A stretch of 64,000 nt of DNA from Caulobacteraceae bacterium (GCA_019748055.1 JAIEQC010000050.1:24817-88816), one strand, 5' to 3'. Positions 4,421 to 55,505 are shown, counted from the stretch's first letter. The notes: a model not told the origin generated them from the sequence alone. Program-made: numbers and translations.

Positions 4421-5938
4421 GTGACGCTTCAGGACCGGCAGGGTCAGGGCATGCGGATCTGGAGCGGCTTCAGACGATCGATCGCCGGCGCGGCGGTGCT
4501 GGCTTCGCTGGTGCTGGCCGGCTGCGCGACGGCGCAGGACGTGCCGCCTCCACCGCCTCCTCCGCCGCCCGTCGCGCCGCCTCCGCCGCCGCCGCCTCCT
4601 CCTCCTCCACCGCCGTCTCCAACGGACGTGCGCATCTCGGACGCACGGGCGCTGGCCGATGGCGGCGATCTCGTGGGGGCCGAGCCGCTGTACGTCGCCG
4701 CGGCCGAACAGGCGGAGGCGCAGGGCGACGCCGTCGCCGCCTCCGCCGCCTGGATCGAGGTGGCCAAGGCCCGCGCCGGGCTGGGCCGGGAGGACGAGGC
4801 CGACGCCGCCGTGGGCCGCGCGGTGACGGTGGTGGAGAGCGGGCTGGGACCACGCTCAACCGCCCTGATCCCCGCCCTGCTGACCCAGGCCCGCATGCGC
4901 TACATTCAGGGTCGCCACGAGGAGGCGCTGGCCGCCGCGGGGCGCGGGCTGGACCTGGCGGGCCCGGACGGCGACCCCCGGCTGGTCGCCGATCTCACCT
5001 ATGAGCGCGCCAAGAACCTCGACGTGCTGGGCCGCTTCGCCGAGGCCGAGGCCGCGGCGCGGACCGTCATCGCCCTGCGGACCGAGCTGCTGGGCCCCGA
5101 CGACCCCTACGTCGGCGACGCCCTGAACCAGCTGGCCAACGCCCTGATGGCGCAGGGCCGCTATGCCGAGGCCGAGCCGCACCAGCGGCGGGCGCTCGTG
5201 ATATACGAGGCCGCCTACGGCGCCGAGGACGAGCAGGTGGCGCTGGCGCTCAGCAACCTCGGCAACATCCTGCGCCGCACGGGGCGAATGGATGAGGCGG
5301 AGCGTTCGCACCGCCGCGCCGTCGCCATCGCCGGGAAGGTCGAGAACCCGGTCCTTCTGGCCCAGACCCTGACCAACCACGGCTGGCTGCTGCACCTGAC
5401 CGGGCGCGGCGATCTGGCCGAGCCGATCTTCCGTCAGGCGCTGGCCATCGCGCTGGAGCTGGTCGGGCCGGACCATCCCTTCACCGGCATCGCCACCGCC
5501 AACCTCGCCTTCAGCCTGGTCGATCAGGGCCGCCACGCCGAGGCCCTTCCGCTGTTCCAGACGGCGCTTCCGGTGCTGGAGGCGGGGCTGGGGGCGGACA
5601 GTCCCGATCTGGTCACCACCCTGGACGGCTATGGCCAGACGCTGATCGGGCTGGGTCGCCCGGACGAGGCCGAGGCCCTGATGATCCGCGCCGGCGCCAT
5701 CCTGGCCGCACGCCAGCCGGCGGGGCATCCCGACGCGGTGTTCCAGGCCGCGGACCACGGCGCCTTCCTGGCCCGCGCGGGCCGGCCGCGGGACGCGCTG
5801 GCCGTGCTCAGACCCGCGCGCGATGCCCTGTTCCGCCGGGATGGACGGCGGCTGGAGGGAAGCGACCCCACCCGCCGCGCGGCCCCGCTGTTCCGCCGCA
5901 TCGTCCAAGCCGCCTGGCTGGCGAAATCTCCCGACTGA
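4421..5938 (+). CDS. TPR-repeat lipoprotein with long poly-proline linker
   Basis: Lipobox LVLAGC, then P9-VA-P13, then repeated Ala/Leu-rich TPR-like units (YxxALxxxxxxLGxxHP pattern). The start could instead be the MRIW codon at 4451. Confidence 0.75.
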   Translation: MTLQDRQGQGMRIWSGFRRSIAGAAVLASLVLAGCATAQDVPPPPPPPPPVAPPPPPPPPPPPPPSPTDVRISDARALADGGDLVGAEPLYVAAAEQAEAQGDAVAASAAWIEVAKARAGLGREDEADAAVGRAVTVVESGLGPRSTALIPALLTQARMRYIQGRHEEALAAAGRGLDLAGPDGDPRLVADLTYERAKNLDVLGRFAEAEAAARTVIALRTELLGPDDPYVGDALNQLANALMAQGRYAEAEPHQRRALVIYEAAYGAEDEQVALALSNLGNILRRTGRMDEAERSHRRAVAIAGKVENPVLLAQTLTNHGWLLHLTGRGDLAEPIFRQALAIALELVGPDHPFTGIATANLAFSLVDQGRHAEALPLFQTALPVLEAGLGADSPDLVTTLDGYGQTLIGLGRPDEAEALMIRAGAILAARQPAGHPDAVFQAADHGAFLARAGRPRDALAVLRPARDALFRRDGRRLEGSDPTRRAAPLFRRIVQAAWLAKSPD

Positions 5939-5953
5939 ATCGGGCGCCGCGCC

Positions 5954-6019
5954 CTTGACGCCTCCCCGCGCCGGACCTACTTCCGCGGCGCGTTAGCACT
6001 CGGGCACGGCGGCTGCCAA
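5954..6019 (+). promoter_or_regulatory. putative heat-shock promoter plus CIRCE-like inverted repeat upstream of groES
   Basis: CTTGAC (5954-5959) and CCTACTT (5976-5982) resemble sigma32 -35/-10 boxes. TTAGCACTC-N9-GGCTGCCAA (5993-6019) matches the CIRCE consensus TTAGCACTC-N9-GAGTGCTAA perfectly in the left arm and 6/9 in the right arm. hrcA is present in the window. Confidence 0.45.
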
Positions 6020-6075
6020 AAGCGCTGGGGTCCGGGGGCGCTCAATCATCAGAGGCCCTGAAGGGAGAACTACAG

Positions 6076-6363
6076 ATGGCGTTTCGTCCGCTCGGCGATC
6101 GCGTGTTGGTCAAGCGCGTGGAAGAGGAATCGAAGACCAAGGGCGGGATCATCATCCCCGACACCGCCAAGGAGAAGCCGCAGGAAGGCGAAGTCGTCTC
6201 CGTCGGCCCCGGCGCCCGCGACGACTCGGGCAAGGTCAACGCGCTCGAGCTGAAGGCCGGCGACCGCATCCTGTTCGGCAAGTGGTCCGGCACCGAGGTC
6301 AAGATCGACGGCGAAGACCTGATCATCATGAAGGAATCAGACGTCCTGGGCGTGCTGGCTTAA
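6076..6363 (+). CDS. groES: co-chaperonin GroES
   Basis: 95 aa, [18 protein letters not shown]...[19 protein letters not shown], the canonical Cpn10 sequence. Confidence 0.97.
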
Positions 6364-6405
6364 GCCCCCGACGACCCTTCTTTCGCAATCCCATCAGATA
6401 TTTAG

Positions 6406-8067
<1,662 letters not shown>

Positions 8068-8114
8068 GTCCGATCCCGGGCTCGACCCGGGATCAGCCCA
8101 GGCTGAAACGAAGA

Positions 8115-29020: not shown

Positions 29021-29530
29021 TCAGAAGGCGGGGGCCGTCGCCGTCCGCCGGTCGAAGTCGTCCTGGGCCGCGACGGTCGAGCGCCGGTACATCAGCGCCT
29101 CGGCCACATGCGACCGCCGGATGCCGTCGGCGCCGTCCAGATCGGCGATGGTGCGGGCCAGTCGCAGCGTGCGCGTCCAGCCGCGCGCGGTGAGCCCCGC
29201 CGCCTCTCCGGCCCGCGCCAGCAAGGCCTTGCCGGCCTCGTCGGGCGACGCGAACCGCTCCAGCGCCTCGCCCTCCAGCCGCGCGTTGATCCCGCCGGTC
29301 CGGGCCGTCTGGGCGTCGCGCGCGGAGGCCACCCGGGCGGCCGCCTCGGCCGTGCCCTCCGCCGGCGCCGGCAGAGCCATGTCCGCCGCGGTCACCGGCG
29401 GAACCTCCACCGTCAGGTCGATGCGGTCGAACAGGGGGCCGGAGATGCGCCCGGCATAGTCGCGCTGGCAGCGTGGAGCCTTGCCGCAGGCCCCCTTGCC
29501 CGCACCGCCGAGGCCGCAGCGGCATGCTCG
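29021..29530 (-). pseudogene. comM: comM (YifB/Mg-chelatase-like ATPase), 3' fragment only
   Basis: CRCGLGGAGKGACGKAPRCQRDYAGRISGPLFDRIDLTVEVPP...ARGWTRTLRLARTIADLDG...HVAEALMYRR matches only the last third of ComM. The AAA+ and Lon-like N-terminal two thirds are absent, and similarity stops near 29525-29535. Confidence 0.75.
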
Positions 29531-29588
29531 TGTTGCCCTTTTGCTTGCCGGCATTCAGCGATCCCTAGTCGCGCCTCGGCGAGAATCT

Positions 29589-29969
29589 GTGCTGCTGCAG
29601 GATGCGAGCGTTGGGCAACGACTTGCGCATCGTCGCTACGAGTTGGGACATCGAATAGTCGATGCCGCGGGTCTAGGCGGCGTCGATACAAAAACATGGA
29701 TGGGGTGGGAGCGGGAGGAACACGCACCGACCGTTCAGCACTATCCTGCGCTCATCCGGTACCTCGGATCGGAGCCATGGGCGGTGCCGGATACGCTCGG
29801 AGACAGGCTTCTTGCTCAACGTCGGCGCCTGGGATTGTCGATAAAGCGTGCTGCGATAATCTCGGGTGTCGATGAGGGAACGTTTCGGCGGTGGGAGCGC
29901 GGGGACTGGAAGCCTCAGCCCAGATCGCTCTCTTTGATCGAGGCGTTTCTAGAACGGGCGGAGATTTAG
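29589..29969 (+). CDS. tandem-HTH (XRE-like) regulator at island edge
   Basis: Two HTH-like repeats, each ending in W-x-W/R-E-R (VDTKTWMGWEREEH and VDEGTFRRWERGDW). The GTG at 29589 is a plausible start. The tracked ORF start at 29481 overlaps the comM remnant. Confidence 0.6.
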   Translation: MLLQDASVGQRLAHRRYELGHRIVDAAGLGGVDTKTWMGWEREEHAPTVQHYPALIRYLGSEPWAVPDTLGDRLLAQRRRLGLSIKRAAIISGVDEGTFRRWERGDWKPQPRSLSLIEAFLERAEI

Positions 29970-30079
29970 CACCTGTGCGGTCTCGTGCCCGTCCGACCGG
30001 AAGTATGAGGCTGTCCCCACATTGCCGGGCAGTGACGCTGGTCTGAATGGTATCGCATACTGGCTGAGAACCCGGAGGG

Positions 30080-31171
30080 TCATGCGAGGGCACCGGTCGC
30101 GTGATTGGCGCACTGGTCAAGGAGCCTGCAGAGCGGGGTGTCGGGCTCGTCAATCATATCCAAGAGACGTTTCAGGACCGCTCCAGGTCTGTCTACAAGG
30201 TCGTTGCGACTGAAGGTGTCCGATGGAAGGCCCAACCCCCTTAGGGGCGTGGCGGGACGGCCTTCAAGGACCGTCGCCGTCACCCATGGCAGGATCCAGA
30301 ACAGCACAAGCGCGTGGCCGAGCCGATATCGCACCGCAGCCTGGTTTGCGTAGCTCAGGGCCTGGCCCAGCGCGACGTGGGGGCCGTCGTTACGAACGGC
30401 GGCGGCCCTGAAGCGGGTGATCCAGCCGCGTTCGCGGGGATAGCCCGCCGTACAGAAGTAGAGGGTAGGGTCTTCAAGGATGCGGCGCGGCGACGTGAGC
30501 GCGCCGGCGCGCTCCACGCGACGGCGGGTCGCGCCTGTCAGCGCTCGCGCGCGCAAGAACAGGCGCGTCGTCTCGGCATGCAGCTCGGAGCCGTCCGGCG
30601 CATATTCTCGTTGCAGGCCGCCCCACCGCTGATAATCGATGAGGCGATAACCGCAGGCCTTGTCGTCAACGAGCGTCTCTTGGGCGTCATCGACTTCGTA
30701 GGCGCGGAGCACCTGATCCACTTTCAGCTCCAGTTCGCGGTAAGCGAGCAGACGCGAACTGCCGTCCTGGGCACGACCAATCGATCCTTCGAGCAGAACA
30801 TTGGCGCCAGCGGCTGCCCTCATGCGCTCGAGGTATCCTGGCAAATAGATCGTGTCGGCGTCCCCCTGCAGAATCAGGACATCGTCGGGGCGAAGGCCTC
30901 GCTTTTGCGCAAGGTCAGCCGCATGCAGCACACCCCGGTGCCTGGGGGGCACGAAGCCGCGCCTACGTTCACGCACGCGGTGGATGCGACCATCACCACT
31001 CGAGACCAAACCACCAAGAATGGTCCACGTGGCGTCTGTCGATCCATTGTCCACGAGGATGATATCCGCGTCGGGTGGGAGTGGGTTCGACTCCGTCAGC
31101 GAATTCGCCGTCGCATGGACATGCGCCTCCTCATTCAAGCAAGGGATGACGATGGCCACATGCGTCGCCAC
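30080..31171 (-). CDS. family 2 glycosyltransferase
   Basis: VAIVIPCLNEE...IILVDNGSTD...LQGDADTIY (DxD) are GT-A/GT2 motifs. Last gene of the operon, 4 nt after the GNAT stop. Confidence 0.85.
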   Translation of the reverse strand: MATHVAIVIPCLNEEAHVHATANSLTESNPLPPDADIILVDNGSTDATWTILGGLVSSGDGRIHRVRERRRGFVPPRHRGVLHAADLAQKRGLRPDDVLILQGDADTIYLPGYLERMRAAAGANVLLEGSIGRAQDGSSRLLAYRELELKVDQVLRAYEVDDAQETLVDDKACGYRLIDYQRWGGLQREYAPDGSELHAETTRLFLRARALTGATRRRVERAGALTSPRRILEDPTLYFCTAGYPRERGWITRFRAAAVRNDGPHVALGQALSYANQAAVRYRLGHALVLFWILPWVTATVLEGRPATPLRGLGLPSDTFSRNDLVDRPGAVLKRLLDMIDEPDTPLCRLLDQCANHATGALA

Positions 31172-31175
31172 AGGG

Positions 31176-31631
31176 TCAGCGCTGCCGAACCCAGCGCATC
31201 AGGCACTGTGAATGGTCGATCGGGGTGACGTCTTCGTAGCCCGCCGCCGCCGCTGCCCGCCTCGACGCCTCGTTGGATTTGCGCATATGTGCGTAAATCA
31301 TGTCGTACTGGCTTTCCTCACTCGCCAGTCGATAGGCGATGCGGCCGATTCCGAGGCCTTGGCTCTGCCGGTTGAGGTATATTTGGATCGAGGCGTGGGG
31401 GCCGATCGGCGGTTCGTTGATCCAGTTGATGTAGACCCGCCCCGCGCGGGAGTTTTTAAGGAAGACCGACCAGGCTTCCCCGCCGGGGCCGCCGCCAGTC
31501 TCCGCCCCACCCTTCCCGCGCGAGAGCCGGACGTCGCTCGGCGAGACCCGCTCCTCCGGCGGAGCCGGCGCGACGGGTCTGGGCTTGGGTGTGGCGCGGG
31601 TCCCCGGACGCCGCTTGGGAGATTTAGGCAT
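31176..31631 (-). CDS. GNAT-like acetyltransferase with basic Pro-rich N-terminus
   Basis: The ATG at 31631 gives MPKSPKRRPGTRATPKPRP.... The core QIYLNRQSQGLGIGRIAYRLA...NEASRRAAAAAGYE resembles the GNAT motif A/B. Confidence 0.6.
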   Translation of the reverse strand: MPKSPKRRPGTRATPKPRPVAPAPPEERVSPSDVRLSRGKGGAETGGGPGGEAWSVFLKNSRAGRVYINWINEPPIGPHASIQIYLNRQSQGLGIGRIAYRLASEESQYDMIYAHMRKSNEASRRAAAAAGYEDVTPIDHSQCLMRWVRQR

Positions 31632-32607
31632 AGAGCTCTCCCAAGGTACCACGAAGTGCGCGATCGGCGGCGTCCCATAGTTCGGACGGGAAGAATCCCG
31701 GCGAATAGGCGATGATCGCATCTTCGATCCGGTCGACTACGCCGCCACGCCGAAGCGCCATCGCCACGCTGCGAATTCGCGCGATGACGGCCTCGGCCGG
31801 CGGATCGAGCCGCTCAGCTCGTTCTGACCAATCCCCGTCGCCATCGAACCGGTTATTGAAGTAGTCCATATCCACGTGGAGGAGCACGGGACCGGAGGCA
31901 AGGTTCTCGATCCATTCGCTGATGTCCGGGGTGAGCATGTAGCGCCCCGCACCGCAGCCAACTGCCGGATGTAGCCTGATGGCCGGACGTCTGGCATCGA
32001 GATCGATGAGATCATCCTCCTGCAGATGCGGCTGGATCTCGAAGAGGGCGGTTGATGCAGCTTTCGGCGGCTGACAGAGGTGCCTAACCTCTGCGTTTGG
32101 AAAAGCGTGCAGCACCGGCGTCAGGAAGCTGCCCATCCCGACCGCGCCGCTCCCGAGGGCCCGTCGGACGCTTTCCGGCTCCCCGAAATCGAAAAGCCCG
32201 CCGGCAATCGGATCACGCCAGCCGCCGTCGCCCACGAACAGACGCGGCGACATCAGGTCACGATGATCATCGACGTGCAGAATGGTCAGGTGCGCATCGC
32301 GACGTGTGCCGGAAGCTGCAGCCCAGCGGGCCCAGCTGACCAATGTCCAAGTGTCGTAAAGCGCCGTCGTTACGCGGCCCTGACGCCGTACCGCCTCCAC
32401 CATCTGGCCAAGCCCGGGCGCCCAGCCCTTCAGGTGATCAGTCAGCAGTGGGTCAATGTGTCGTTCTGGCTCGTCCGGCCACCGAAAGTTCAGGCGCCAG
32501 CCGCCAGCTTCAGGCGTCGCCACCGCGTCACGATCGCAGAAGTAGTCTCTCAGGCGTGCGTGCCGGGCGTGTGGTTCTTCCGGCAACCGGTCCCATGGCA
32601 ACCACAC
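31624..32607 (-). CDS. arginase/deacetylase-fold-like protein (UPF0489-like)
   Basis: LHVDDHRDLMSP and LLHVDMDYFNN resemble the metal-binding DxHxD and DxD motifs of the ureohydrolase fold. A GTG at 32607 lies 2 nt after the radical SAM stop. The tracked ORF extends to 32685. Confidence 0.55.
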   Translation of the reverse strand: MWLPWDRLPEEPHARHARLRDYFCDRDAVATPEAGGWRLNFRWPDEPERHIDPLLTDHLKGWAPGLGQMVEAVRRQGRVTTALYDTWTLVSWARWAAASGTRRDAHLTILHVDDHRDLMSPRLFVGDGGWRDPIAGGLFDFGEPESVRRALGSGAVGMGSFLTPVLHAFPNAEVRHLCQPPKAASTALFEIQPHLQEDDLIDLDARRPAIRLHPAVGCGAGRYMLTPDISEWIENLASGPVLLHVDMDYFNNRFDGDGDWSERAERLDPPAEAVIARIRSVAMALRRGGVVDRIEDAIIAYSPGFFPSELWDAADRALRGTLGELYA

Positions 32608-32609
32608 GC

Positions 32610-34736
32610 TCAAGCCGCCAGTGATACTGCGCCCCGTGAGCGGAGCACGGCGGCGAGCGCAGCGCCCGCCCCGGTGAGCTGGCACTGCTCCAGCGTCGCG
32701 AACGCCTGAGCCAAATTCCGGTCGGTGTCCGCCAGTTGGTTGCGCGCCCGGGCGACCATTCTGGCCGGTCCCGAGGCCAGCACATGCTCCCAGAAGCGTC
32801 TCAGTTCTACGAAGACGAAGATGGCGTGCAACAGGCCGGAGACTGGCCGTAGGTCTTCACGCCAAGGGGAGACGACCAGATCCCCCGGTAGCGTTGTGGG
32901 GAAACGGCGCTCAAAGAGATAGAGCTTCTGGTGCCGATGCTCGTGAAGCAGAGAGTCCGCCAGATCGTAGGCGTCGACCATGCCATTTCCCTGACGAACC
33001 GAGACGAAGAGGGCACCGGGCACCGCATCGTCGCTGAAGGACACGATCTTGTCTGGATGGGCCGTCGGATCGCGGATGAACTGCACTGCCGGGCTCGTGA
33101 CCTCGATCTCCCGGCCAAGCGCCGGCCGCCATTCTGCAAGAATGTGTAGCGCCTCATCGACGAGCGGCCGCGCGGCGGCGGCGATCTCCGACGGCTCGAA
33201 CAAGATCGCGTCGCCAAAAGGCCTGCGGAGCCAGCGATCGTCCGCCCCAACGACCGGGGTCTCGATGGGAGATTGGCACAGTCGCTCGATCTCCTCGACA
33301 TAGTCAGCGTCCAGCGCCAGTGGCGCGCCGGCGACGTCACAGACAGTTCGCCCGTCCCGCGTCGCAAGCGTCACATTGCTCCAAGCGACTACGCCGGGTT
33401 GCCAGCTTATGTTGTCCAAGCGCTCTGTCGACAGGGCCAGGATGCGCAGCGCGGTCTCTCCTGTTTGGCCGCCCCGGGTCGCAACGTAGCGCAACGCCGC
33501 CTCCAGAGATGCGCGATGAGCTCGGCCGGCGCCCTCGCGCAGGCTCGCCATCACAGCCTCACCCGTCTCCGCGAGCTCAAAAGCGTCGATATCCATGTCG
33601 AGCTCTGGCTCCCCCACCTCGGCGTCAAGCGCTTCGCTCAGGCGCAACCGAGCATGGGCAATGAGCGCCATCATCTCTCGGCAGTAGACAGTGGGATTGT
33701 TGAAGCCTGCCTCGCTCCACCGGTGCGGCACGGCGCCGCCACCACAGATTTCCGAGACCGCGCAGGCCTGGCACGTCGCACTGAGTCCGGATTTCGAGAG
33801 CAGACGACGATGTGCTTCCAGCTGAGGGGATCTGGCCGACTCGGCGATGGACGTGTTCAGCACACTCCCGCCGAGCTGGGTGTCGTTGCCCACCACCTTC
33901 AGAACATCGAGGTCGTGGTAAGTCCCATCGGTTTCTATGGAGATCAGGCTCACGTCGCCGAAGCCGAACGCATCAGTCCCGGACGGCAACCCCATGATGG
34001 CGTCAAGGAGTGCCTCAAAACTACGGACGGACAGTGATGGATACTGATCGAGCCAGATGTCGAAGGCTCGTTTGAGCCAGCGGACGTATAGATCCGGGTC
34101 CTCGCCCCTACCCTGCGGCGGGCGTCCGTGGTGCGCGTCTGGCAGGAGGAAGTCGATACGCGGAGGGGCGTGGTCTGCGAAATATCCCAAAATCTCAGCG
34201 GGATCCGTCCTCCCGTCGACGACGGCGATCACCCCTGCGAACACGCTGGGCCTGAGCTTCAGGCGCTCAAGGGCGGCTTCGACCTTTTCGAAGCTTGAGC
34301 GGCGCCGACGAGTTGTTCGATGGAGGTCATTTACGGTGCGCGGGCCGTCAAGGCTAAGCGACACGCCGATGCCAGCAGCCTCAAGAAGGTCGAGGGCTGC
34401 GTCGTCCAGCAGCAGGCCGTTCGTCTGCAAACCAATGTCGACGTCGATGCCAGCGCCAGCTGTCTCGCGGATCAGACGAGCGAACTCACAGAGCGACGCC
34501 GCGCCGGCCAGAAGGGGCTCGCCACCGTGGAAGATGACGGCAGCCCGCTTCAGGTCGATGGCTCGAGCATACTCCGCCAGCCGAGCTGCGAAGGCCTCGC
34601 GGTGCTCGTCACTCAATACCTGCGGCATCGTTCGCCACGATTGGTCGGCGTGGTGATAGATGTAGCAGTAGTCGCAATCGAGGTTGCAACGGGACGCGAC
34701 CTTGACGAGGAAGGATGAGATCCTCGTGGGCGTCAT
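32610..34736 (-). CDS. radical SAM/SPASM peptide maturase with C-terminal HExxH domain (FxsB-like)
   Basis: N-terminal SRCNLDCDYCYIYHHADQSW (Cx3Cx2C), a SPASM-type cluster CQACAVSEICGGG...YC, and a roughly 300-aa C-terminal extension with LLHEHRHQKL (HExxH). Confidence 0.85.
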   Translation of the reverse strand: MTPTRISSFLVKVASRCNLDCDYCYIYHHADQSWRTMPQVLSDEHREAFAARLAEYARAIDLKRAAVIFHGGEPLLAGAASLCEFARLIRETAGAGIDVDIGLQTNGLLLDDAALDLLEAAGIGVSLSLDGPRTVNDLHRTTRRRRSSFEKVEAALERLKLRPSVFAGVIAVVDGRTDPAEILGYFADHAPPRIDFLLPDAHHGRPPQGRGEDPDLYVRWLKRAFDIWLDQYPSLSVRSFEALLDAIMGLPSGTDAFGFGDVSLISIETDGTYHDLDVLKVVGNDTQLGGSVLNTSIAESARSPQLEAHRRLLSKSGLSATCQACAVSEICGGGAVPHRWSEAGFNNPTVYCREMMALIAHARLRLSEALDAEVGEPELDMDIDAFELAETGEAVMASLREGAGRAHRASLEAALRYVATRGGQTGETALRILALSTERLDNISWQPGVVAWSNVTLATRDGRTVCDVAGAPLALDADYVEEIERLCQSPIETPVVGADDRWLRRPFGDAILFEPSEIAAAARPLVDEALHILAEWRPALGREIEVTSPAVQFIRDPTAHPDKIVSFSDDAVPGALFVSVRQGNGMVDAYDLADSLLHEHRHQKLYLFERRFPTTLPGDLVVSPWREDLRPVSGLLHAIFVFVELRRFWEHVLASGPARMVARARNQLADTDRNLAQAFATLEQCQLTGAGAALAAVLRSRGAVSLAA

Positions 34737-34744
34737 CGGCGCGC

Positions 34745-34909
34745 CTACGAGCGATTGTGGCGGTGATGCATCCGGTCGTAGCTGGTGATCACTTCGCTCG
34801 CCTGAGCGTCCGAGCGAAGGCGGCCCTGCAACCGCTGAAGAGCCGGGTTGGCCATCTTGGCCTTAAGGACGGACGTCCGGAGCGTGGTAGTCTCTGCAGC
34901 TTGCATCAT
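34745..34909 (-). CDS. 54-aa putative RiPP precursor peptide (not in ORF track)
   Basis: The minus strand reads GAAGGAGATCGCT-ATG ATG.... Translation: MMQAAETTTLRTSVLKAKMANPALQRLQGRLRSDAQASEVITSYDRMHHRHNRS. Strong RBS. The stop lies 8 nt before the radical SAM ATG. Confidence 0.6.
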   Translation of the reverse strand: MMQAAETTTLRTSVLKAKMANPALQRLQGRLRSDAQASEVITSYDRMHHRHNRS

Positions 34910-35019
34910 AGCGATCTCCTTCAAGATAGAGCTAACCTCGATCTACGAATACCGCAACGTGCAATTCCAACCTCCTGAGGGCTCCGCTGTACTAGAGGCT
35001 CGCCTCTCGACCCGCTGGG

Positions 35020-35343
35020 CTAAGGCGCTGACGCAACAGGCGCGCCCCTCGACCGGGGCACGTTCTTCAGACCGACTTGCCGCTCCAAAGCGGCGACATC
35101 CCAACGCAGAAGCGGCAGGTGGCGCTGCGCCATCCTCAGGTTCTGTGGGGCGCCATCGAGGTCGCCGTTCGCGATTTGCGTCGCCGCCAGAGAGTGCGCG
35201 CAGAGGAATTGGCTCCGGGACGGCCCGGACCCGCTGAGGCGTTTTCCGCACTTCGGAGTTTCCTGGGCGGGCAAGTCTTCCTGTTGGCGCAACAGCGTCG
35301 CGGTGAGCAAGTCTCCGGGATCCACCCTTAGCCGACCGACCAC
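35020..35343 (-). pseudogene. remnant paralogous to the C-terminus of the wHTH-TPR regulator at 35986-37212
   Basis: HSLAATQIANGDLDGAPQNLRMAQRHLPLLRWDVAALERQVGLKN aligns with RALAAAQVATGDLEGALQNLRTAQRRMPFLRRDILVLERQIALRDN. The DNA is also alignable (about 35080-35200 vs 36030-36170). Confidence 0.5.
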
Positions 35344-35367
35344 TCCCGACCCATTGCAGACTTCGGG

Positions 35368-35754
35368 TCAGCCGAGTTTCAAACCTTGGGGTTGCGCACC
35401 CGTCACACCGACAATCCGGGGACCGCGCACGAGCCAGCCCAACGTCACGGGGACTAGGTGAAGGAGATGGCTGAGGTGAAAGACATGCGGTTCCAACCCT
35501 TCCCAGCGCGGGCCAAAGTTCAGCGACAAGACCATCAATACGATCCACCAGCCGGTGAGATTTGCGTTCTTCAAGCGTTGAAACGTCAGAACCACGAGGG
35601 CGATGTAGATCGGCAAACCGGCGAGCGTAGCTATCCAGTCTGAAGCTCCCAGCATCCTCAATAGGACAGGGATAACGATGATTGCCGCGATGAGTGCGAC
35701 ACTGGCCCAGCGGTAGTTCTGGATTGCGCACAGACGGTGAAAGAACGTCGCCAT
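35368..35754 (-). CDS. DUF805-family inner membrane protein
   Basis: 128 aa, three to four TM helices, and QRLKNANLTGWWIVL, which resembles the DUF805 RLHD..SGWW motif. Confidence 0.7.
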   Translation of the reverse strand: MATFFHRLCAIQNYRWASVALIAAIIVIPVLLRMLGASDWIATLAGLPIYIALVVLTFQRLKNANLTGWWIVLMVLSLNFGPRWEGLEPHVFHLSHLLHLVPVTLGWLVRGPRIVGVTGAQPQGLKLG

Positions 35755-35985
35755 GAGCGAAGGCTAGCAGTGGTGGAGTAAGCAAACCACCCTCAGGCGA
35801 GCGTCGGCTTCCCACCCTCAGCGGACATTCGCACCGTCCGCTCTAGAGAGGGGCCCCATGTAGTCTACAAGGACGTCTGATGCGCATTTTGGCCGGCGGA
35901 GCGAGGGACGTGGGCGCCATCGGTCAGTGACGCCGGGTGGGGACCGCGCGCATCCTCGTGGCGTTCCCGTCTGGCGCGTCCCGGT

Positions 35986-37212
35986 TCAGGAGGCAGAGGT
36001 AGCTGCCTCGGGATTGTCCCTCAAAGCGATCTGCCGCTCCAAAACGAGGATGTCACGACGAAGGAAGGGCATGCGGCGCTGCGCCGTCCTGAGGTTCTGC
36101 AGCGCCCCCTCCAGGTCGCCCGTGGCGACCTGCGCTGCCGCAAGCGCTCGCCGGTACTCGGGCATCTCGGGATTGGCGGCTACGAGAGACCGAGCCTCCG
36201 TCAGTGCTGCGCGGGCGACCCGTCGGTCATGGCCATGCTCCATCACCAGCCGGACGTCGATCCTAACCCTTAGCGCCCGGGCGAGTGTGAACCGCGGCTG
36301 CACTTCTAGAGCGGATTGCAGCAGCTCCCGCGCAGCCAGCAGGCTGGTTTCATCACCATTGCGGGCAAGCTCCGAAGCGGCGAGATAAAGTTCTTTCGCT
36401 TTCCTCGGCTGCACCAAGAACCCGTTCTCTTGCATCGGCAGACCCAGCACCTCGACTTGGGCGTGGATGGCCGAGACGAAGTGCGACACCGCGCGATCCC
36501 ACGAACCCTCCCGCAGCGGATAGGTTTCGGCCCAGAGCACGAGCCCTGTGGCCGTCTCCACGAGCTCCAGTGCCAAGGCTTCATCGCCCGCAAGCGCGAT
36601 CCTTCGCATGCCGACCACGAGATCCGTGGAACCTTCGCCGTCGCCCGCAACAACAGCTAGGCCAGACAGCCGGGACAAGTCCCGAACCAACAGGCGCCGC
36701 GCGCTGCCCAATGCCTCCGCCGACGTCGAGGTGTCGACGGCGGCTTCGCTTCTGATCGAAAGCGTCAGTGGCTTGGCCGCCCCTGCGCCGCCGTGCTGGA
36801 CGAGGACGATGAGGAGGACCGCGCAAATCGCAGCCACCGCTATTGCGGCCTGTACTCTTCTGCCCCTCCAAAGCGAGGCGCCGATCCCGGCCTGTTCGTA
36901 GGTGCCGAGCGACGTCGTCAGGCGGTAGCCGACGCTTCGTACAGCCTCAATCCCGTCGCGCATCCCCAGGGCGGCCAAGCCGTCGCGCAGCATCTTGGCT
37001 CTCTGTTTGACCGTCTCCCGCGAAACCTGGGCACCCCAGACCCGCTGCTCTATCTCCGCGAATGAGACCGGCTCCGGTGCGCGTTCGCCGAGCACACGGA
37101 GCAGACGGAATGACAAATCCGCCAACTTCACCTCCCGCCTGCCGCAACGGACGGTGCGCGTCGCGTCGCAGACATCCAGCTCCGCCGCAAGGTTTCGATC
37201 TCTATATGTCAT
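35986..37212 (-). CDS. CadC/OmpR-type winged-helix regulator with TM anchor and TPR-like C-terminal domain
   Basis: The ATG at 37212 gives MTYRDRNL.... The wHTH is LSFRLLRVLGERAPEPVSFAEIEQRVWG...VSRETVKQRAKMLRDGL...VRSVGYRL. One TM segment (AAIAVAAICAVLLIVLV) is followed by helical repeats. Confidence 0.75.
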   Translation of the reverse strand: MTYRDRNLAAELDVCDATRTVRCGRREVKLADLSFRLLRVLGERAPEPVSFAEIEQRVWGAQVSRETVKQRAKMLRDGLAALGMRDGIEAVRSVGYRLTTSLGTYEQAGIGASLWRGRRVQAAIAVAAICAVLLIVLVQHGGAGAAKPLTLSIRSEAAVDTSTSAEALGSARRLLVRDLSRLSGLAVVAGDGEGSTDLVVGMRRIALAGDEALALELVETATGLVLWAETYPLREGSWDRAVSHFVSAIHAQVEVLGLPMQENGFLVQPRKAKELYLAASELARNGDETSLLAARELLQSALEVQPRFTLARALRVRIDVRLVMEHGHDRRVARAALTEARSLVAANPEMPEYRRALAAAQVATGDLEGALQNLRTAQRRMPFLRRDILVLERQIALRDNPEAATSAS

Positions 37213-37318
37213 TGAGCACTCGCAGTGTTTTCCATCCTTCACCAATATTTTCTTTGCCGCCGCCACCGGCCACCTCAGGACTGCGGGCCAAGCGTCAAAG
37301 CCAAGGTGAGAAGAAAAC

Positions 37319-38752
37319 ATGCGTGTAACAAGGCGTACGGTCGCGGTGGGGGCAGCGGCGTGGCTCTTCGCCCCCGGAGCAACCGCTCTTGAGGACCCGG
37401 ATGGTCCCCTCAGCGCCGCTGAGGTGTCACAGATCATCCTCGAGGCGGTCGCCAAGGCGAACGGCGTGCCCGGGATGTCGGCTGCGGTGGTGAGGGACGG
37501 TTGCGTCCTGTGGACCGGGACGACTGGCTCCCGGGACCTTGAGCGCGGCTTGGCGGTCGTGCCTGAGACGGCTTTCCGGCTGGCCAGCGTCTCCAAGCTG
37601 ATCACCGCCACAGCAGCAGCAAGGCTTGAGGATGAGGGCCTGCTCGACGTCAATGCTCCGATCCAAGATACAGTCCATTACCTGAGCGGCGCCTGGCCCA
37701 TCATGACCGCCCGCCAGCTTGCGTCCCACACGGCGGGGTTGCCCCACTACCAAGCCATCGACACTGACCGCGGCAGGCAGTCATTCGCATCTGTACGCGA
37801 AACGGTCGCCCTTTTCGAAAGGCGTCCGCTGCTCTCCTCGCCGGGGGAGCGCTACTCTTACAGCTCCTGGGGCTACACGCTGCTCAGCGCCGTCGTTGAG
37901 GAAGCCGCCGGCGTGCCGTTCCTTGACTATGTCGCGACTGACGTCACCGCCGGCCTAGACATCGTGCCCGACACCGCACCCGCCGCCGCGACCGACACGC
38001 TCGCCTATGAGATCGAAGGCGGCTCCCCGAAACGGGCGGCTCCGCATGACTACAGCTATTCCTGGGGAGGCGCCGGCTTCCGCGCACCCGCTTTCGCCCT
38101 CGCCCTGTTCGGCGACCGTGTGATGTCCCCGGCCTTCCTTTCGGATGCGGCGCGCGAGGCGATGTGGACCCCCACGCGCACGAATGATGGACAGGCGGTG
38201 ACCGACGACGACAGCGAGGTCGCCTTCGGTTGGCGCATCACATCCTCCATCGACGGGGAGCGCATGGCCCACCACGCGGGCGCCGCGATCGGAGCGCGCA
38301 GCGTTCTGCTTGTCTACCCGGAACAGCGTGTCTCCGTCGCCTTGCTGTCCAACGCGTCGTGGATTTCGTCCATCGAGCGGACAGCTGAGATGATTTCCGC
38401 ACCGATCAGAGACGTGCCTGCAGGTGCTGGCGACGCCCCATGCCCAGTGGGTGCACGCGCGTTCCACGGAACCTTCCAGGATGCGCACGTCACAGGAACA
38501 GTCCGCTTCCAACTGGAGGGCGGCCTGTGCCAAGGGTCGGTCTCGGCCGACAATGCTTTCGGCAGATGGCTGAACGGGTTCACGCAAAAGCCTCTCGCCG
38601 CCTTCGAGGTGATTGCCCTGAGGGCGGACGGTCGTCTCGACCGCGCCGCCTTCGTCTCCCCGATCGGGGCCCACGAGGTCAGGCGCGGACCCGAAGGAGG
38701 CTTCCAAGTGGACTTCGGCGGCGGTCGCAGCCTTGAGATAGTCCTGCAATGA
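37319..38752 (+). CDS. beta-lactamase-family serine hydrolase with extra C-terminal domain
   Basis: Signal-like N-terminus, SxxK motif in FRLASVSKLITA, YSYSSWGY, and a later HHAGAAIG. The C-terminal part of about 120 aa is unassigned. Confidence 0.85.
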   Translation: MRVTRRTVAVGAAAWLFAPGATALEDPDGPLSAAEVSQIILEAVAKANGVPGMSAAVVRDGCVLWTGTTGSRDLERGLAVVPETAFRLASVSKLITATAAARLEDEGLLDVNAPIQDTVHYLSGAWPIMTARQLASHTAGLPHYQAIDTDRGRQSFASVRETVALFERRPLLSSPGERYSYSSWGYTLLSAVVEEAAGVPFLDYVATDVTAGLDIVPDTAPAAATDTLAYEIEGGSPKRAAPHDYSYSWGGAGFRAPAFALALFGDRVMSPAFLSDAAREAMWTPTRTNDGQAVTDDDSEVAFGWRITSSIDGERMAHHAGAAIGARSVLLVYPEQRVSVALLSNASWISSIERTAEMISAPIRDVPAGAGDAPCPVGARAFHGTFQDAHVTGTVRFQLEGGLCQGSVSADNAFGRWLNGFTQKPLAAFEVIALRADGRLDRAAFVSPIGAHEVRRGPEGGFQVDFGGGRSLEIVLQ

Positions 38753-38862: not shown

Positions 38863-39450
38863 TCATGTCGCGTTGAGACTGCGGCGCACAACAGCCGGAA
38901 GGCTCGTGCACATCTCCACCCGTTCACGCCCAATGCAGGCGATGACCTCTGCTACGTGGTGCGCCGCCACACGCATCCTCGCATCCACCAACGCTCCATA
39001 CAGTGCGTCGCCGAGGCCAGCCTCGCCTAGCCCAGCGCGGACCCCGGGCGTTAACAGCAGGTCAATGGTCGACGCGACCACAAGGCCAGGAAAACGGACA
39101 GCCGCCAGCGACGTCGCCTTGCGCTCGTCGATATAGGCCACCACGCCGGCCCGTTCGGCGTATACCAGCGTCGCCGCCTCACCGTCATCCAAGGTCTGGG
39201 CTGCATCACCGGCCAGAAGGCTAAGAAAAACGTCTTCATCCTGGGGGTCTAGATCGACCACCTGCATCAGGCCGAGATGCAGCCAGACCGCCACGTGATC
39301 AGCCGCATGCCGCCCCTTATCGCGGCCTCGCTCCAGTTCGGTGAGCGCGGTCCGCGTGATTTCGAGGCTTCCGTCGTAGAGCCCCAGAATCCTGTCAGCG
39401 CAGCCCGTGGCGGCGAGATTGATCCAGACGCTCGCATCGGCGACGGCCAT
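38863..39450 (-). CDS. PIN-like nuclease-fold protein
   Basis: N-terminal VADASVWINL (Asp), DDGEAATLVYA (Glu) and YIDERKA (Asp) spaced as in PIN-like domains. Starts 7 nt after the XRE-ImmA stop. Confidence 0.55.
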   Translation of the reverse strand: MAVADASVWINLAATGCADRILGLYDGSLEITRTALTELERGRDKGRHAADHVAVWLHLGLMQVVDLDPQDEDVFLSLLAGDAAQTLDDGEAATLVYAERAGVVAYIDERKATSLAAVRFPGLVVASTIDLLLTPGVRAGLGEAGLGDALYGALVDARMRVAAHHVAEVIACIGRERVEMCTSLPAVVRRSLNAT

Positions 39451-39457
39451 GCGCGCC

Positions 39458-40627
39458 TCAGAGCATCGGACGGGAGGACGCGTTATCGACCTCCTCGTCC
39501 TCGAAGGCGTCGATCAACTCGCGGATTTCCACCCGATCGAGCTGCAAGAGCCCCGCCAACTGGCCTTCGCTCAGGAGGTTCTTCTTCCAGGCCTCGCGCG
39601 CCAGCATGCCAAGCCGCAATGACACGGGCCGGGCCGCGTCCGCCTTTCGGGCGTCGACGCTCCAAGCGTCGCCGAGGACCTGCCGCGCCTGGTCGTTGGT
39701 GATTCCGCCGTTGTGCTCGAACCAATCCCAGGTTCCAACCTTGGTCAGGCCAAGCTCTTCCAGTCGGCGAACCATGGCTTCGCGCGCCACGCCAAAGGCA
39801 TGGGCGAGCACGATGACGTGGCGCCGTGTCAACGCGGAACTGCCAGCGGTGACATCCCGGAACATGGCCATTACGGAGCGGGCCGGGGTGAGAAAAGCCC
39901 GGGCGAAGGCGTTCGCGTAGCGCTCTTCGCGACTGGCTTCGGGTGAGCCGTCGTAGAGGGCGTCCGGTGCCCGCCGGGTCGAGACCAAATGGCCAAGCTC
40001 GTGACCGCCGGTCTGGGCGCGGCGCTCGCGCGGGTGGGCGGCGTTCAGAAGAATGCAGGGACCGGCGGCCTCATGGTAGGCGTAGAGGCCAGAGATCTTG
40101 GCCGGCAGGCGGCGAACGAACACTCTGACGCCGAGCTGAAGTTCGAGCAGCGAGACGATGTCGTGCACCGGCGCTTGGCCGATGCCCAGCCACTGGCGCA
40201 ATTCAGCCGCGTCGTGCTCCGCCTGGAGGACTACGTCTCCAGGCATGAGCGGGCGCTCGGGCGGATCGTTTCGGGTGCGACGCACGCCGAGGAGATCCTC
40301 GAGTTCCAATTCTGCCTGGACGAGGGTGGTCAAGAGGGTGACGGCGCCTTCGACCCCAGCATCCTGCTCGCCCATCCGTCGGAAGCGGGGCTTGAGATCG
40401 ACCTGCACCGCTTCACGTCGCAACAGCGCGTTCAATGAAACGCCATATAGCGACGCCAGCCGCTGCAGCTCGTCGAGCTTGGCCCTACGTTGGCCCTGCT
40501 CGATGGCGACCACAGTCGTGCGAGCTACCTCAAGGGCCGCGGCGGCGGCTGCCTGGGTGATCCTTGCCGCCTCCCGCGCGATCCGCAGCCGCTCGCCGAC
40601 TTCATGAGGGGATAGCGCTTCACTCAT
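39458..40627 (-). CDS. XRE HTH - ImmA/IrrE zinc-metallopeptidase fusion
   Basis: The ATG at 40627 gives MSEALSPHEVGERLRIAREAARITQAAAAAALEVARTTVVAIEQG (the HTH). The peptidase motif is TGGHELGHLV (HExxH). The start overlaps the upstream stop (ATGA). Confidence 0.85.
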   Translation of the reverse strand: MSEALSPHEVGERLRIAREAARITQAAAAAALEVARTTVVAIEQGQRRAKLDELQRLASLYGVSLNALLRREAVQVDLKPRFRRMGEQDAGVEGAVTLLTTLVQAELELEDLLGVRRTRNDPPERPLMPGDVVLQAEHDAAELRQWLGIGQAPVHDIVSLLELQLGVRVFVRRLPAKISGLYAYHEAAGPCILLNAAHPRERRAQTGGHELGHLVSTRRAPDALYDGSPEASREERYANAFARAFLTPARSVMAMFRDVTAGSSALTRRHVIVLAHAFGVAREAMVRRLEELGLTKVGTWDWFEHNGGITNDQARQVLGDAWSVDARKADAARPVSLRLGMLAREAWKKNLLSEGQLAGLLQLDRVEIRELIDAFEDEEVDNASSRPML

Positions 40628-42000
40628 TGCTGGACGGCCGAAAGGCCCCGGACGAAGGAGGTCGGCGCGAGCGCTGCAAGGAACCGATGCCATTCGGCTG
40701 CGTGACGGGCGAGCAGCGAACGCAACAACGCTTCGATGGCGACCGGATCTTCGTGCAGGACCTCTGCAGTTTCCCGGGCTACGCGCCGCACAGCGCGGAC
40801 CGCGCTCGGCGCGGTTGCTAACTCGGCGAGATGATCCATGTGCAAAACGCCGGCGATCGCGTGCTCGCGCATGGACTCGGTGATGCCAGTGAACCCGGGG
40901 GCCGCGCCAGCCTCCAAGGTCGGCGCAGAGAGATCTTCCCAGATGTAGGAGTCAGCCGGTTCGGCCAAGCCGGCGTTGAACATGCTCATGCGGCGCAGCA
41001 TGCAGGCCGCACAGATGCCGCACTGGCGGCGATGGCTATCGACGGAGGCGTGCCGCGACTGCTGCCAGCAGGAGCGGGTGTCGTCCCAGGTCGGCGGGTT
41101 AGGAAGGGCAGCGGCCTCGGCTAGAGTCTCGGCCTTAGTGGACCATAGCCGAGGGTATTCGTAGCGCGCACTCGACCCCACCAGGGCCTCGAAGAGAACT
41201 TCCATCCGTGTGGTGAAGAGCGGGTGGACGCGGTAGTCCGGGTAGATCTGCCCGCTGACGGCCATCATCGGGCCGAAGGCGCCTTGGCCGCTCTCGGTCA
41301 CGACGATGCGCTCGACGTTCGCAATCTGTGCCGCGACTCCGGTGACGACGGCGAACTTGAAGCCCCGCGACCGGGCGGACGATTCCTTGCGAGCCGGAAC
41401 GCGGACCTTGTAGGGCACGAGGGTGAAGGCGGCCCGGCGACGTTCGCGAAGCGGATCGTCAACGCCAACGGAACCGAGCCGCACGCGCACCAAGGCCGAG
41501 CCGCCCAGAGCTTGTGCGATAAGGGCGTGGACAGCGCGGGAATCCAGCCCATCGCTATAGGGCATGATGGCCTTGGCATTGGCTGGCAACTCCAGGCTCA
41601 GAGGACGCATGGTCTCGGCGCTCTTCTGGCGCGCGACGAAGCTGAACGACCAGGTGTCGCCGGTGAGGAAGGTCAAGGCGTCCTCGAGGGCGCTCTGGAC
41701 CGGAGCCGACGACCAAAGGCCCGGATCGTGCACGGCGACGCGGACGTTGAAGGTCCGTGCCCAAGAGACGGTCGAGCGCGCCTTGGCCGCGTCGCAATAT
41801 TCCGTCGTCGCCGCCACCACCAAGAGGTCGAAAAGCTCCGGGCGCCAATTCGAGAAGAAGTAGGTCTCCAGCCCTTCGGTCGACAGGCGGATCGCGGCGC
41901 CGAGTTCGGCAAGCTCAGCGCCGGGGCGGACCTGAACCCCGGGCTCAACGATGTCCACGACCATGGGCTCATCGACCAGTCGGACAGCAACGGTGGTCAC
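40624..42000 (-). CDS. QueC-like PP-loop ATPase with N-terminal extension and Zn-ribbon
   Basis: PYSDGLDS is a variant of the SGGxDS PP-loop. SCWQQ...x17...CGICAACMLRR resembles the QueC SCY...CGxCxxCxLR zinc site. The N-terminal domain of about 140 aa is unassigned. GTG start overlaps the upstream stop (GTGA). Confidence 0.7.
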   Translation of the reverse strand: MTTVAVRLVDEPMVVDIVEPGVQVRPGAELAELGAAIRLSTEGLETYFFSNWRPELFDLLVVAATTEYCDAAKARSTVSWARTFNVRVAVHDPGLWSSAPVQSALEDALTFLTGDTWSFSFVARQKSAETMRPLSLELPANAKAIMPYSDGLDSRAVHALIAQALGGSALVRVRLGSVGVDDPLRERRRAAFTLVPYKVRVPARKESSARSRGFKFAVVTGVAAQIANVERIVVTESGQGAFGPMMAVSGQIYPDYRVHPLFTTRMEVLFEALVGSSARYEYPRLWSTKAETLAEAAALPNPPTWDDTRSCWQQSRHASVDSHRRQCGICAACMLRRMSMFNAGLAEPADSYIWEDLSAPTLEAGAAPGFTGITESMREHAIAGVLHMDHLAELATAPSAVRAVRRVARETAEVLHEDPVAIEALLRSLLARHAAEWHRFLAALAPTSFVRGLSAVQQ

Positions 42001-42563
42001 AGGCGCACTCCTTCGTCGAGACCGGTCCGATCGATGGGCGAAGTTAGATCGCGGGCCGACACGCCGGCCACCAGCGCCGAGGCGAGCCCCTTCAAATCCA
42101 CGGCAGCCATCGACTCGGTCAGCCGCGCGCGCATCCCGGCGGCCTTACCCTGCGAGGCCTCGCGCCGGTAGTGCTCCTCCACCTGACGTTGGCCGCGGTC
42201 CGCGCGCTCGACGAGAGTCGCGAACGCGGCGTCCTCCAAGGCTTCAGCACCCCGACGGCCGTCACGCAATGCGTCCAGGGCGTTATCGGCTAGCAGCGCC
42301 TCCATAGGGTTGGAGTGCTGCGCGCGCAGGCGGCAGACCTCCTGCTTGGCGACTTCAAGCATCAGCAGGCCCCTTTCATCGTCGCCGAGGGCGGCGCGCA
42401 TCTGGCGCAAGAAGGACTGGCCGATTTCACGCCAGTCTGCCGCCAGCGCCGCCGGGACCGCCTCCGCCACTTCCGCATTGGTGTGGGCGGCGTTGCCGGC
42501 AAGCTTCGCCAGAGCCTTCCATTTGGTGCTCATCTTCAGGGTCTTGTAGGGGCCGTCGCTCAT
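41997..42563 (-). CDS. hypothetical helical protein (first gene of QueC-like operon)
   Basis: 188 aa, Ala/Glu/Arg-rich, predicted helical. No motif recognised. Confidence 0.6.
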   Translation of the reverse strand: MSDGPYKTLKMSTKWKALAKLAGNAAHTNAEVAEAVPAALAADWREIGQSFLRQMRAALGDDERGLLMLEVAKQEVCRLRAQHSNPMEALLADNALDALRDGRRGAEALEDAAFATLVERADRGQRQVEEHYRREASQGKAAGMRARLTESMAAVDLKGLASALVAGVSARDLTSPIDRTGLDEGVRL

Positions 42564-54320: not shown

Positions 54321-55505
54321 TCACCCGAGCTCTGCGCTGAACGGGCGGCTGGGGGCGCCGTCGATCATGAGCTTCACGTAGAAGTTCCTGTTTGGAAGGT
54401 TGAGGAGGTCAATGACCTCAAACGTCGGCTGGAGCTCCGCGGCTAGCCTCGGGGCATCCTCTGCCCCGACGCGGAAGACCACGAGCGATCCGGCATTCCC
54501 TAGGACGGCATGTCGGACCTCTGGCTCCAGCTGGTGAAGATGCTGGTGCGCAAGCGTCAGCCCGACCCCGTACTTCCGAAGCTCGGCCAGCATGTTGGCG
54601 AACGAGAGCGTGGTGAAGCTCTGGAACTCGTCGAGGTACAGGAAGAAGGGACGGCGTCCGGCGGCGGCGTCTTCTGCTCGGCTCATAGCTGCGAGACCGA
54701 TCGTCGAGGCGATCAGACTGCCGAGAACCGCAGCGCCGTCCGCCCCCAGCCGCCCCTTCGCAAGGTTTACGATCAGGGCCTCTCCCCGGTCCATGATGCG
54801 GCGAAAACTCAAGGGCCGCTCCGGCGCGACGAGAATGCGATGGAGGCGCGGATCGGTCAGGAGGGCCCCGAGTTTGTTCTGGATTGGAGCCACGGCCTCC
54901 AGTCGTGTGCGATCCGGATAGGCGGCGAACTCCTCTGTCCAGAACCGCCGAACGGTGGGATTGCGTATCTGCCGCACCAGCGATCGACGGAACGCCTTGT
55001 CCGAGTAGAGCGCGAGAATGTCCGGCAGCGTCGAACCGTCACGCTCAAGGAGCGCGTACAGGCTGTTGCGCAGCACGTGCTCCATGCGAACGCCCCACGC
55101 GTCGGGCCAGAGCTTCCTGAAGGCATCAAGGAGCCCGGAAGCAGCCAATGGGATCTTGTCGTCCCTGACCCTGCGAAGCGGATTATAGCCGTACGGCTGG
55201 TCGAGATCGGCAGCGTCCAGATAGTGGAGCCGCGGTCCCAGCACTGCTGCGGCCCCATCTCGCACACGTTCTGCCAAGTCGCCATGCGGGTCGATGAGCG
55301 CGAAGCCACGGCCCGCAGTGACGTCCTGGCCAGCAAGCCGCTCGAGAAGGGCCGACTTCCCCACGCCGGTCTTGCCGATGATGTAGAGATGCGAAAGCCG
55401 GTCGCGCTGCCGTATCCCGAACGAGACGCCGCGACGGTGAAATGTGGTTTGGCCGACGTATGTCACGGCCTCGGAGGCGGGCGCCATCACCAGACGGTAC
55501 CGCAA
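54321..55505 (-). CDS. T4CP/TraD-HerA-like P-loop ATPase (no TM segment)
   Basis: Walker A IIGKTGVGKS, Walker B-like FFLYLDEFQSF, and LRKYGVGLTLAHQHLHQL. This is the architecture of soluble type IV secretion DNA-binding-domain ATPases. Confidence 0.8.
   Translation of the reverse strand: MRYRLVMAPASEAVTYVGQTTFHRRGVSFGIRQRDRLSHLYIIGKTGVGKSALLERLAGQDVTAGRGFALIDPHGDLAERVRDGAAAVLGPRLHYLDAADLDQPYGYNPLRRVRDDKIPLAASGLLDAFRKLWPDAWGVRMEHVLRNSLYALLERDGSTLPDILALYSDKAFRRSLVRQIRNPTVRRFWTEEFAAYPDRTRLEAVAPIQNKLGALLTDPRLHRILVAPERPLSFRRIMDRGEALIVNLAKGRLGADGAAVLGSLIASTIGLAAMSRAEDAAAGRRPFFLYLDEFQSFTTLSFANMLAELRKYGVGLTLAHQHLHQLEPEVRHAVLGNAGSLVVFRVGAEDAPRLAAELQPTFEVIDLLNLPNRNFYVKLMIDGAPSRPFSAELG

Follow-up and report, generated by a model that had tools for sequence, protein, structure and literature searches.

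The open reading frame at positions 34745..34909, on the minus strand of the window (the whole 64,000-nucleotide stretch of Caulobacteraceae DNA analysed here), very probably encodes a triceptide precursor of the YhhA/ChlA family and would stand at the head of a compact operon of five genes on this strand. The frame opens with two consecutive ATG codons (34909..34904) and ends with a TAG stop codon (34747..34745), which is included in the above coordinates, and yields a peptide of 54 aa from the first ATG or 53 aa from the second; its 54 codons, read from the reverse complement of 35100..34700, are given by MMQAAETTTLRTSVLKAKMANPALQRLQGRLRSDAQASEVITSYDRMHHRHNRS. An earlier note on this DNA, in which the strand was not specified, had placed a GAAGGAG ribosome-binding site 5-6 nt before the double ATG and the stop codon 8 nt before the start of the maturase gene. 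Both placements hold on direct reading: the Shine-Dalgarno-like GAAGGAG lies at 34916..34922 (minus strand), separated from the first ATG by the 6-nt spacer ATCGCT, and the gap between the stop codon and the maturase ATG (34736) consists of the eight nucleotides GCGCGCCG. Translation likewise returns the last 11 residues as originally described, YDR-M-HHR-HNR-S, with three aromatic-x-Arg units at the C-terminus S-Y44-D-R-M-H48-H-R-H51-N-R-S54. From the core sequence, Y44-D-R46, H48-H-R50 and H51-N-R53 (34748..34780, minus strand) are the predicted cyclophane motifs.

Since homologues begin with MQ, one of the two adjacent ATG codons should serve as the start, the second being the likelier candidate. 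A mechanical ORF list instead extends the frame to TTG 34924 (59 aa), a start that we rejected, as this codon overlaps the ribosome-binding site and the homologues start where the two ATG codons lie. An exact look-up of the 54-aa peptide matches Logan assemblies only, for which reason the deposited record appears to name the maturase alone; the precursor gene is thus probably missing from the deposited genome annotation.

The assignment to a family is carried by a curated model. The precursor scores 63.4 bits (E 1.5e-17) against the NCBIfam equivalog NF041705, 'YhhA family cyclophane-containing RiPP', which has a cutoff of 36, and it displays the traits of this family, namely a core with Tyr-x-Arg, His-x-Arg and His-x-Arg motifs and an adjoining gene for a YhhB-type maturase. 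Proteins from Phenylobacterium zucineum and Phenylobacterium sp. VNQ135 that share 91-92% identity with it carry the same name in their annotation. Moreover, the C-terminus of the crystallised 'ChlA R3A mutant' (PDB 9gmc, chain B), ITSYDAMHHRHNRS, equals the core of the window peptide, ITSYDRMHHRHNRS, apart from the engineered R-to-A exchange. Membership in the FxsA (FXSXX-COOH), XyeA or GrrA families was considered and rejected, as no model other than that for YhhA is passed by the precursor, and the enzyme stays under the XyeB and GrrM cutoffs.

The adjoining gene (32610..34736, minus strand) encodes a yhhB/chlB-type fused maturase of 708 aa, whose exact look-up leads to NCBI entry MBX9576414.1 from a Caulobacteraceae MAG. 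Its N-terminal part, residues 6-369 (33630..34721), constitutes a radical SAM/SPASM cyclophane synthase domain that scores 483 bits against NF041707 (cyclophane-forming radical SAM/SPASM peptide maturase YhhB; cutoff 445) and, over residues 6-362, 511.2 bits against TIGR04269 (FxsB family; cutoff 370). In the PDB, residues 4-373 find a match in the 'ChlB radical SAM domain' of 9gm3 and 9gmc (E 1.5e-139), with a blastp identity of 56.5%. Alignment with ChlB locates the CX3CX2C motif at C17, C21 and C24 (34665..34688), and four cysteines nearer the C-terminal end of this domain, Cys322, 325, 331 and 352, align with ChlB cysteines as well. The equivalog models for XyeB and GrrM gave scores below their cutoffs (142 vs 450 and 105 vs 310 bits, respectively). 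The C-terminal part of the protein, residues 381-697 (32646..33596), corresponds to an aKG-HExxH beta-hydroxylase domain: it matches 'ChlH from Chlorogloeopsis sp.' (PDB 8s5f, E 1.3e-79), residues 526-696 score 127-129 bits against TIGR04267 (aKG-HExxH-type peptide beta-hydroxylase; cutoff 40), and the HExxH motif is read as H598-E-H-R-H602 (32931..32945). With NF041705, NF041707 and TIGR04269 all passed, the proposal of the earlier note, a precursor of three-residue cyclophanes with Tyr44, His48 and His51 joined to the C-beta of Arg, is well borne out at the level of sequence. The note had overlooked two points, the hydroxylase domain fused to the maturase and the fact that the family had already been named, modelled by HMMs and crystallised.

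Considering that high-GC DNA harbours many spurious reading frames (in this window, 597 ORFs reach 30 aa or more), one can ask whether the ORF is merely an untranslated chance frame in a genome of 67% GC, with the true substrate of the radical SAM enzyme encoded elsewhere. Within these 597 ORFs (70,859 residues), the precursor is the only one whose last 13 residues include three aromatic-x-Arg units in near succession, and this C-terminal motif is unlikely to have arisen by chance. The only other ORF in the window with three such units, 62772..63494 on the minus strand, carries them internally (HRRAHTRLHLR, from residue 19 of 240), probably as a chance match in an Arg/His-rich, high-GC translation. 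A protein search returned 287 homologues of the precursor, and 120 of the 123 examined end in Y.R.H.RH.R followed by one last residue. In the alignment, the core SEVITSYDRMHHRHNRS (34748..34798, minus strand) is almost invariant, and R11, N21, A23, R26, L27 and R30 are invariant in the leader, the match to the ChlA core falling within the same conserved segment. We place the leader at residues 1-37 (34799..34909, minus strand), with R11 and N21-P-A-L-Q-R-L-x-G-R30 as its conserved elements and a boundary to the core that is suggested by conservation. As to the helical leader predicted in the earlier note, modelling of the free peptide with AF2 does yield helices at residues 2-16 and 22-34, but the confidence is moderate (mean pLDDT 70.8, with block means of 80-85 over residues 11-30), and the model lends this part of the proposal weak support.

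Related loci, obtained by a scan with one genome per species, numbered 13. Seven of them (L001-L007) contain a full-length fused enzyme with 54-84% identity to that of the window and belong to Phenylobacterium, Brevundimonas, Novosphingobium, Insolitispirillum, two alphaproteobacterial MAGs and the gammaproteobacterium Salinicola. In all seven, a small ORF stops 7-22 nt before the gene of the fused enzyme and ends in ...S(E/Q)VITSYDRM(H/Y)HRH(N/S)RS. Conservation upstream of homologous maturases, one of the points on which the earlier note had let its proposal stand or fall, was thus found for both the ORF and its C-terminal motif, and position, ribosome-binding site and core of the small ORF are kept across genera at this degree of enzyme divergence. 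In a comparison of the last 17 codons, 34 synonymous and 4 non-synonymous codon exchanges separate the window from the seven related loci, a bias that indicates selection on the translated peptide, for which the comparison provides strong evidence. Together with the curated model and the agreement with a crystallised substrate, these conservation data effectively refute the reading as a chance frame, which we regard as scarcely credible.

In the usual radical SAM chemistry, applied to this enzyme, SAM would be cleaved reductively, and the resulting 5'-deoxyadenosyl radical would take a hydrogen from the C-beta of the Arg residue, after which the C-C bond is formed. By analogy with the YhhB/ChlB literature, the radical SAM domain of the window maturase would bind the leader of the precursor and, by orthology, install three rings in its core, from Tyr44-C3 to Arg46-C-beta, from His48-C2 to Arg50-C-beta and from His51-C2 to Arg53-C-beta. 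The fused aKG/Fe(II) HExxH domain would then beta-hydroxylate Asp and His residues once the cyclophane scaffold is in place, probably in the middle positions, Asp45 and His49. The products of the three genes described below (arginase-like, GNAT and GT2) would probably tailor the peptide.

This scheme draws on a chemistry that has largely been worked out elsewhere. Triceptides contain three-residue cyclophanes, formed on aromatic-X2-X3 motifs by cross-links from the aromatic residue to a C-beta, and are made by radical SAM enzymes termed '3-CyFEs' (PMC11499958); the same source credits YhhB with the 'HNR cyclophane' and gives YDR as the native motif of ChlB. For the YhhA family, PMC11002830, citing Sugiyama et al. 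2022 (JACS 144:11580), names cross-links from Tyr-C3 and His-C2 to Arg-C-beta, and the statement in the earlier note that Tyr- and His-based motifs had been reported is correct (Sugiyama et al. 2022). [quoted passage not shown] It is conceivable that the peptide is a genuine substrate whose linkage differs from that made by ChlB and YhhB, be it to the C-gamma of Arg, as reported for WprB, or through C-O or C-N bonds, since the regiochemistry of cyclophane synthases varies between families (PMC11851443, PMC11499958). However, the maturase passes the equivalog-level YhhB model, shares 56% identity with ChlB and faces a core that matches that of ChlA, making such a deviation very improbable.

Among known systems, that of Chlorogloeopsis sp., ChlA/ChlB(-ChlH), is the closest counterpart of the one in the window; it is represented by the PDB entries 9gm3, 9gmc and 8s5f and by Morishita et al. 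2024 (Nat Chem 16:1882) and Ruel et al. 2025 (JACS 147:16850). Besides the identical core, ITSYDRMHHRHNRS bar the R-to-A exchange engineered into the crystallised chain, the two systems have in common a maturase in which a radical SAM/SPASM and an aKG-HExxH domain are fused, and a leader region with an NPAL-x-R motif. They differ in their hosts, a cyanobacterium as opposed to an alphaproteobacterium (the Caulobacteraceae MAG), in the N-terminal part of the leader, which diverges, and possibly in the arginase-like, GNAT and GT2 genes that follow in the window operon. When the ChlB radical SAM sequence, taken from the PDB alignment, was used for a sequence search, the best match was 61% identical and the chl locus was not among the matches. 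Resemblance to YhhA/YhhB is equally clear, with both curated models passed and the motifs Y-x-R, H-x-R and H-x-R present, although the hydroxylase of the published system has a name of its own, YhhC, and may be a separate protein; in the window, the corresponding domain makes up the C-terminal part of the 708-aa maturase. FxsA/FxsB, XyeA/XyeB, GrrA/GrrM-OscB, HaaB and HtkB represent the same enzyme class, linking the aromatic residue 1 to the C-beta of residue 3 (PMC11499958); they differ in their precursor motifs, and the window enzyme misses the XyeB and GrrM cutoffs.

The three genes downstream of the maturase are likewise closely packed. The maturase stop codon TGA (32612..32610) is followed by the start of the third gene (31624..32607, minus strand), which encodes a protein distantly resembling peptide arginases (UPF0489-like), 327 aa long if GTG 32607 is the start codon and 325 aa long if it is TTG 32601. 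Its TAA stop codon (31626..31624) overlaps the region of the ATG (31631) of a GNAT acyltransferase gene, as seen in ATGCCTAA. This fourth gene (31176..31631, minus strand; a longer ORF starts from 31721) matches PF13302 right at the cutoff, with 25.4 bits. The GNAT stop codon TGA (31178..31176) lies 4 nt before the GTG start (31171) of the fifth gene, a family-2 glycosyltransferase (GT2; 30080..31171, minus strand; PF00535, E 2.7e-13). A comparison with PDB sequences gave no match for the GNAT and GT2 proteins, and neither a protease nor an exporter was found among the operon genes. By tblastn, the third gene follows the maturase in L001-L007 and in L009, the GNAT gene is found in seven loci and the GT2 gene in five, always in the same order. 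All three genes are absent from L008 and from L010-L016, more distant loci of the FxsB/YhhB-like kind; this absence is uninformative for the chl cluster.

Neither Pfam nor NCBIfam provides an assignment for the product of the third gene. The large, unnamed family that contains it comprises at least 518 clusters and, at 50% identity, 456 representatives; among 120 listed homologues, all members named by their source are called 'hypothetical protein'. A profile built from 25 family members nevertheless found one convincing match in the PDB, the peptide arginase OspR (8brp, E 3e-7), collinear over most of both proteins. In agreement with this, a Foldseek search with the AF2 model (pLDDT 91.4) yielded 8brp chains as its top three and sole significant matches (E 5.7e-10 to 4e-9, TM 0.50-0.57), followed, with marginal scores, by agmatinase (E 9.7e-3) and other ureohydrolases. 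OspR coordinates Mn via H12, D39, H41, D43, D165 and D167 (PMC10028609). Two motifs that are invariant in the family, D111-D-H113-R-D115 and D244-M-D246, would place D111, H113, D115, D244 and D246 in correspondence with five of these six ligands; a His equivalent to H12 was not found at the expected spacing in the family, and an invariant D83 is located nearby. Against the curated peptide-arginase model NF052474 (FlmR/OhkR), the window protein fails, with 12.7 bits compared to a cutoff of 350. A distant member of the family, P0412, passes Pfam UPF0489 (PF12640; 29.6 vs 27), the Pfam family of OspR-like peptide arginases (PMC8784127). In three further members from other organisms, P0366, P0379 and P0423, a GNAT domain is attached at one end or the other, and another one, P0429, is fused to an ATP-grasp domain; the arginase-like/GNAT fusions provide a Rosetta-stone hint that hydrolase and acyltransferase share a substrate. 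A precedent for such a pairing exists in the selidamides, where an arginase is followed by a hydroxylase and then by GNAT acylation of ornithine (PMC8784127). With OspR, KspR, PhaR and the selidamide GNATs, the third and fourth genes of the window have in common an arginase-like fold, DxHxD and DxD motifs, a neighbouring GNAT and a pathway that includes a hydroxylase; in contrast to OspR, KspR and PhaR, the third-gene product possesses an extra N-terminal region of about 70 residues. The arginase-associated precursors known so far are of the NHLP, Nif11, SCIFF, SCCRRSCN and DD(I/V)LF types, and it is a triceptide precursor that sets the window system apart from peptide arginase systems with NHLP, Nif11, SCIFF or DD(I/V)LF precursors.

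The third gene probably encodes a tailoring enzyme of the triceptide, and the translational coupling of GNAT and GT2 genes to it, in a conserved order, suggests that the peptide undergoes acyl and glycosyl tailoring. A specific extension of our preferred explanation, applying to proteobacterial yhhA operons of this kind, would be that the ChlB-type tricyclophane is an intermediate only: the arginase-like enzyme, from a hitherto unrecognised and strongly divergent branch of the peptide-arginase (UPF0489-like) fold, would turn at least one of the invariant Arg residues into ornithine, the GNAT would acylate the newly formed amine and GT2 would add a sugar, resulting in a mature product unlike anything characterised for YhhA or ChlA. 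This sequence of events is compatible with the gene order and tight coupling kept in related loci, with the likeness to OspR in both profile and fold, with the invariant DxHxD and DxD metal motifs, with GNAT-fused relatives elsewhere, some members of the family passing or approaching UPF0489, and with the selidamide order of arginase, hydroxylase and GNAT. However, NF052474 was failed by a wide margin, the identity to OspR amounts to only 16-17% at a TM score of about 0.55, and no obvious equivalent was found for the first metal-binding His of OspR. Furthermore, the predicted rings engage the C-beta of all three core Arg residues and might thereby stand in the way of an arginase, and the arginase/deacetylase fold supports other hydrolytic reactions too. 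We therefore put this particular route forward as a tentative one, with the odds rather against it, on top of the YhhA/ChlA-type tricyclophane that we consider the primary product of the maturase.

Before more distant, unfused radical SAM relatives with 30-33% identity, L010 (5753..5926) and L011, L012 and L013 (about 5615..5968) have ORFs ending in ...YNRGGGPKG(Q/S)YDR(T/H)Y(T/D)K.TG, and these Tyr-x-Arg/Tyr-x-Lys ORFs look like a different family of triceptide-like precursors. In L014 (5173..5886) and L015 (5182..5985), ORFs of 237-267 aa with weak Hint-domain matches lie directly before unfused YhhB-like radical SAM genes (49-52% identity); no small YhhA-type ORF is seen directly before the radical SAM gene in these two loci, and an amine-oxidase/DAO gene adjoins. 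On an alphaproteobacterial MAG contig, L008 (2338..3650) comprises a weak YhhA-like match (39.6% over 48 residues, E about 6e-6) and then an unfused radical SAM gene, a pair located some 2.4 kb upstream of a fused radical SAM-HExxH gene (6001..8082). Judging by this arrangement, L008 may be a two-maturase cluster.

For the regulation of the operon, scans of 29400..36000 returned no promoter-like site and terminator-like sites no commoner than in shuffled sequences, and an Rfam scan of the 5' region of the precursor gene gave no match. Just upstream of yhhA, the minus strand encodes a CadC-like winged-helix regulator with TPR repeats (35986..37653) and a membrane protein of 128 aa (35368..35754). 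As they are not conserved in the related loci, we did not count these two proteins as components of the yhhA system, and they probably lie outside it. Directly 3' of the GT2 gene, at 29021..29554 (minus strand), we find the C-terminal part of a Mg-chelatase/ComM-YifB-like protein, covering positions 155-206 of the Mg_chelatase profile plus the C-terminal domain, which could be a truncated gene, fitting an insertion. The wider surroundings have an accessory or mobile appearance at 38863..42563 and 54321..55505, both on the minus strand: the former region includes a protein with an HTH and an IrrE/M78 peptidase domain (39458..40693), a QueC-like protein of 458 aa (40624..42000) and several ORFs without a Pfam match, and the latter encodes a TrwB/TraD-like coupling-protein ATPase.

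The YhhA/ChlA peptide family and its enzyme are known from named and curated HMMs, RefSeq annotations, a defined chemistry and enzyme-substrate crystal structures. Given that the family has already been named, characterised and crystallised, the identification of the precursor is correct but ordinary; its gain is one of annotation, adding one further alphaproteobacterial copy, from a Caulobacteraceae MAG, to a known RiPP family. Possible novelty is confined to the arginase-like/GNAT/GT2 module, which lies outside the precursor finding. Among the papers that we searched, none treats these three genes or connects an arginase with a triceptide cluster; the trio may already have been noted in the primary triceptide papers. 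The bioactivities of triceptides are still unelucidated (PMC12257519), which raises the possibility that the heterologous products of ChlB and YhhB may not be the mature natural products. If it holds true, the proposed maturation of the window peptide would be the first reported case of arginase, acyl and glycosyl tailoring in a triceptide and would give a sizeable orphan protein family a function.
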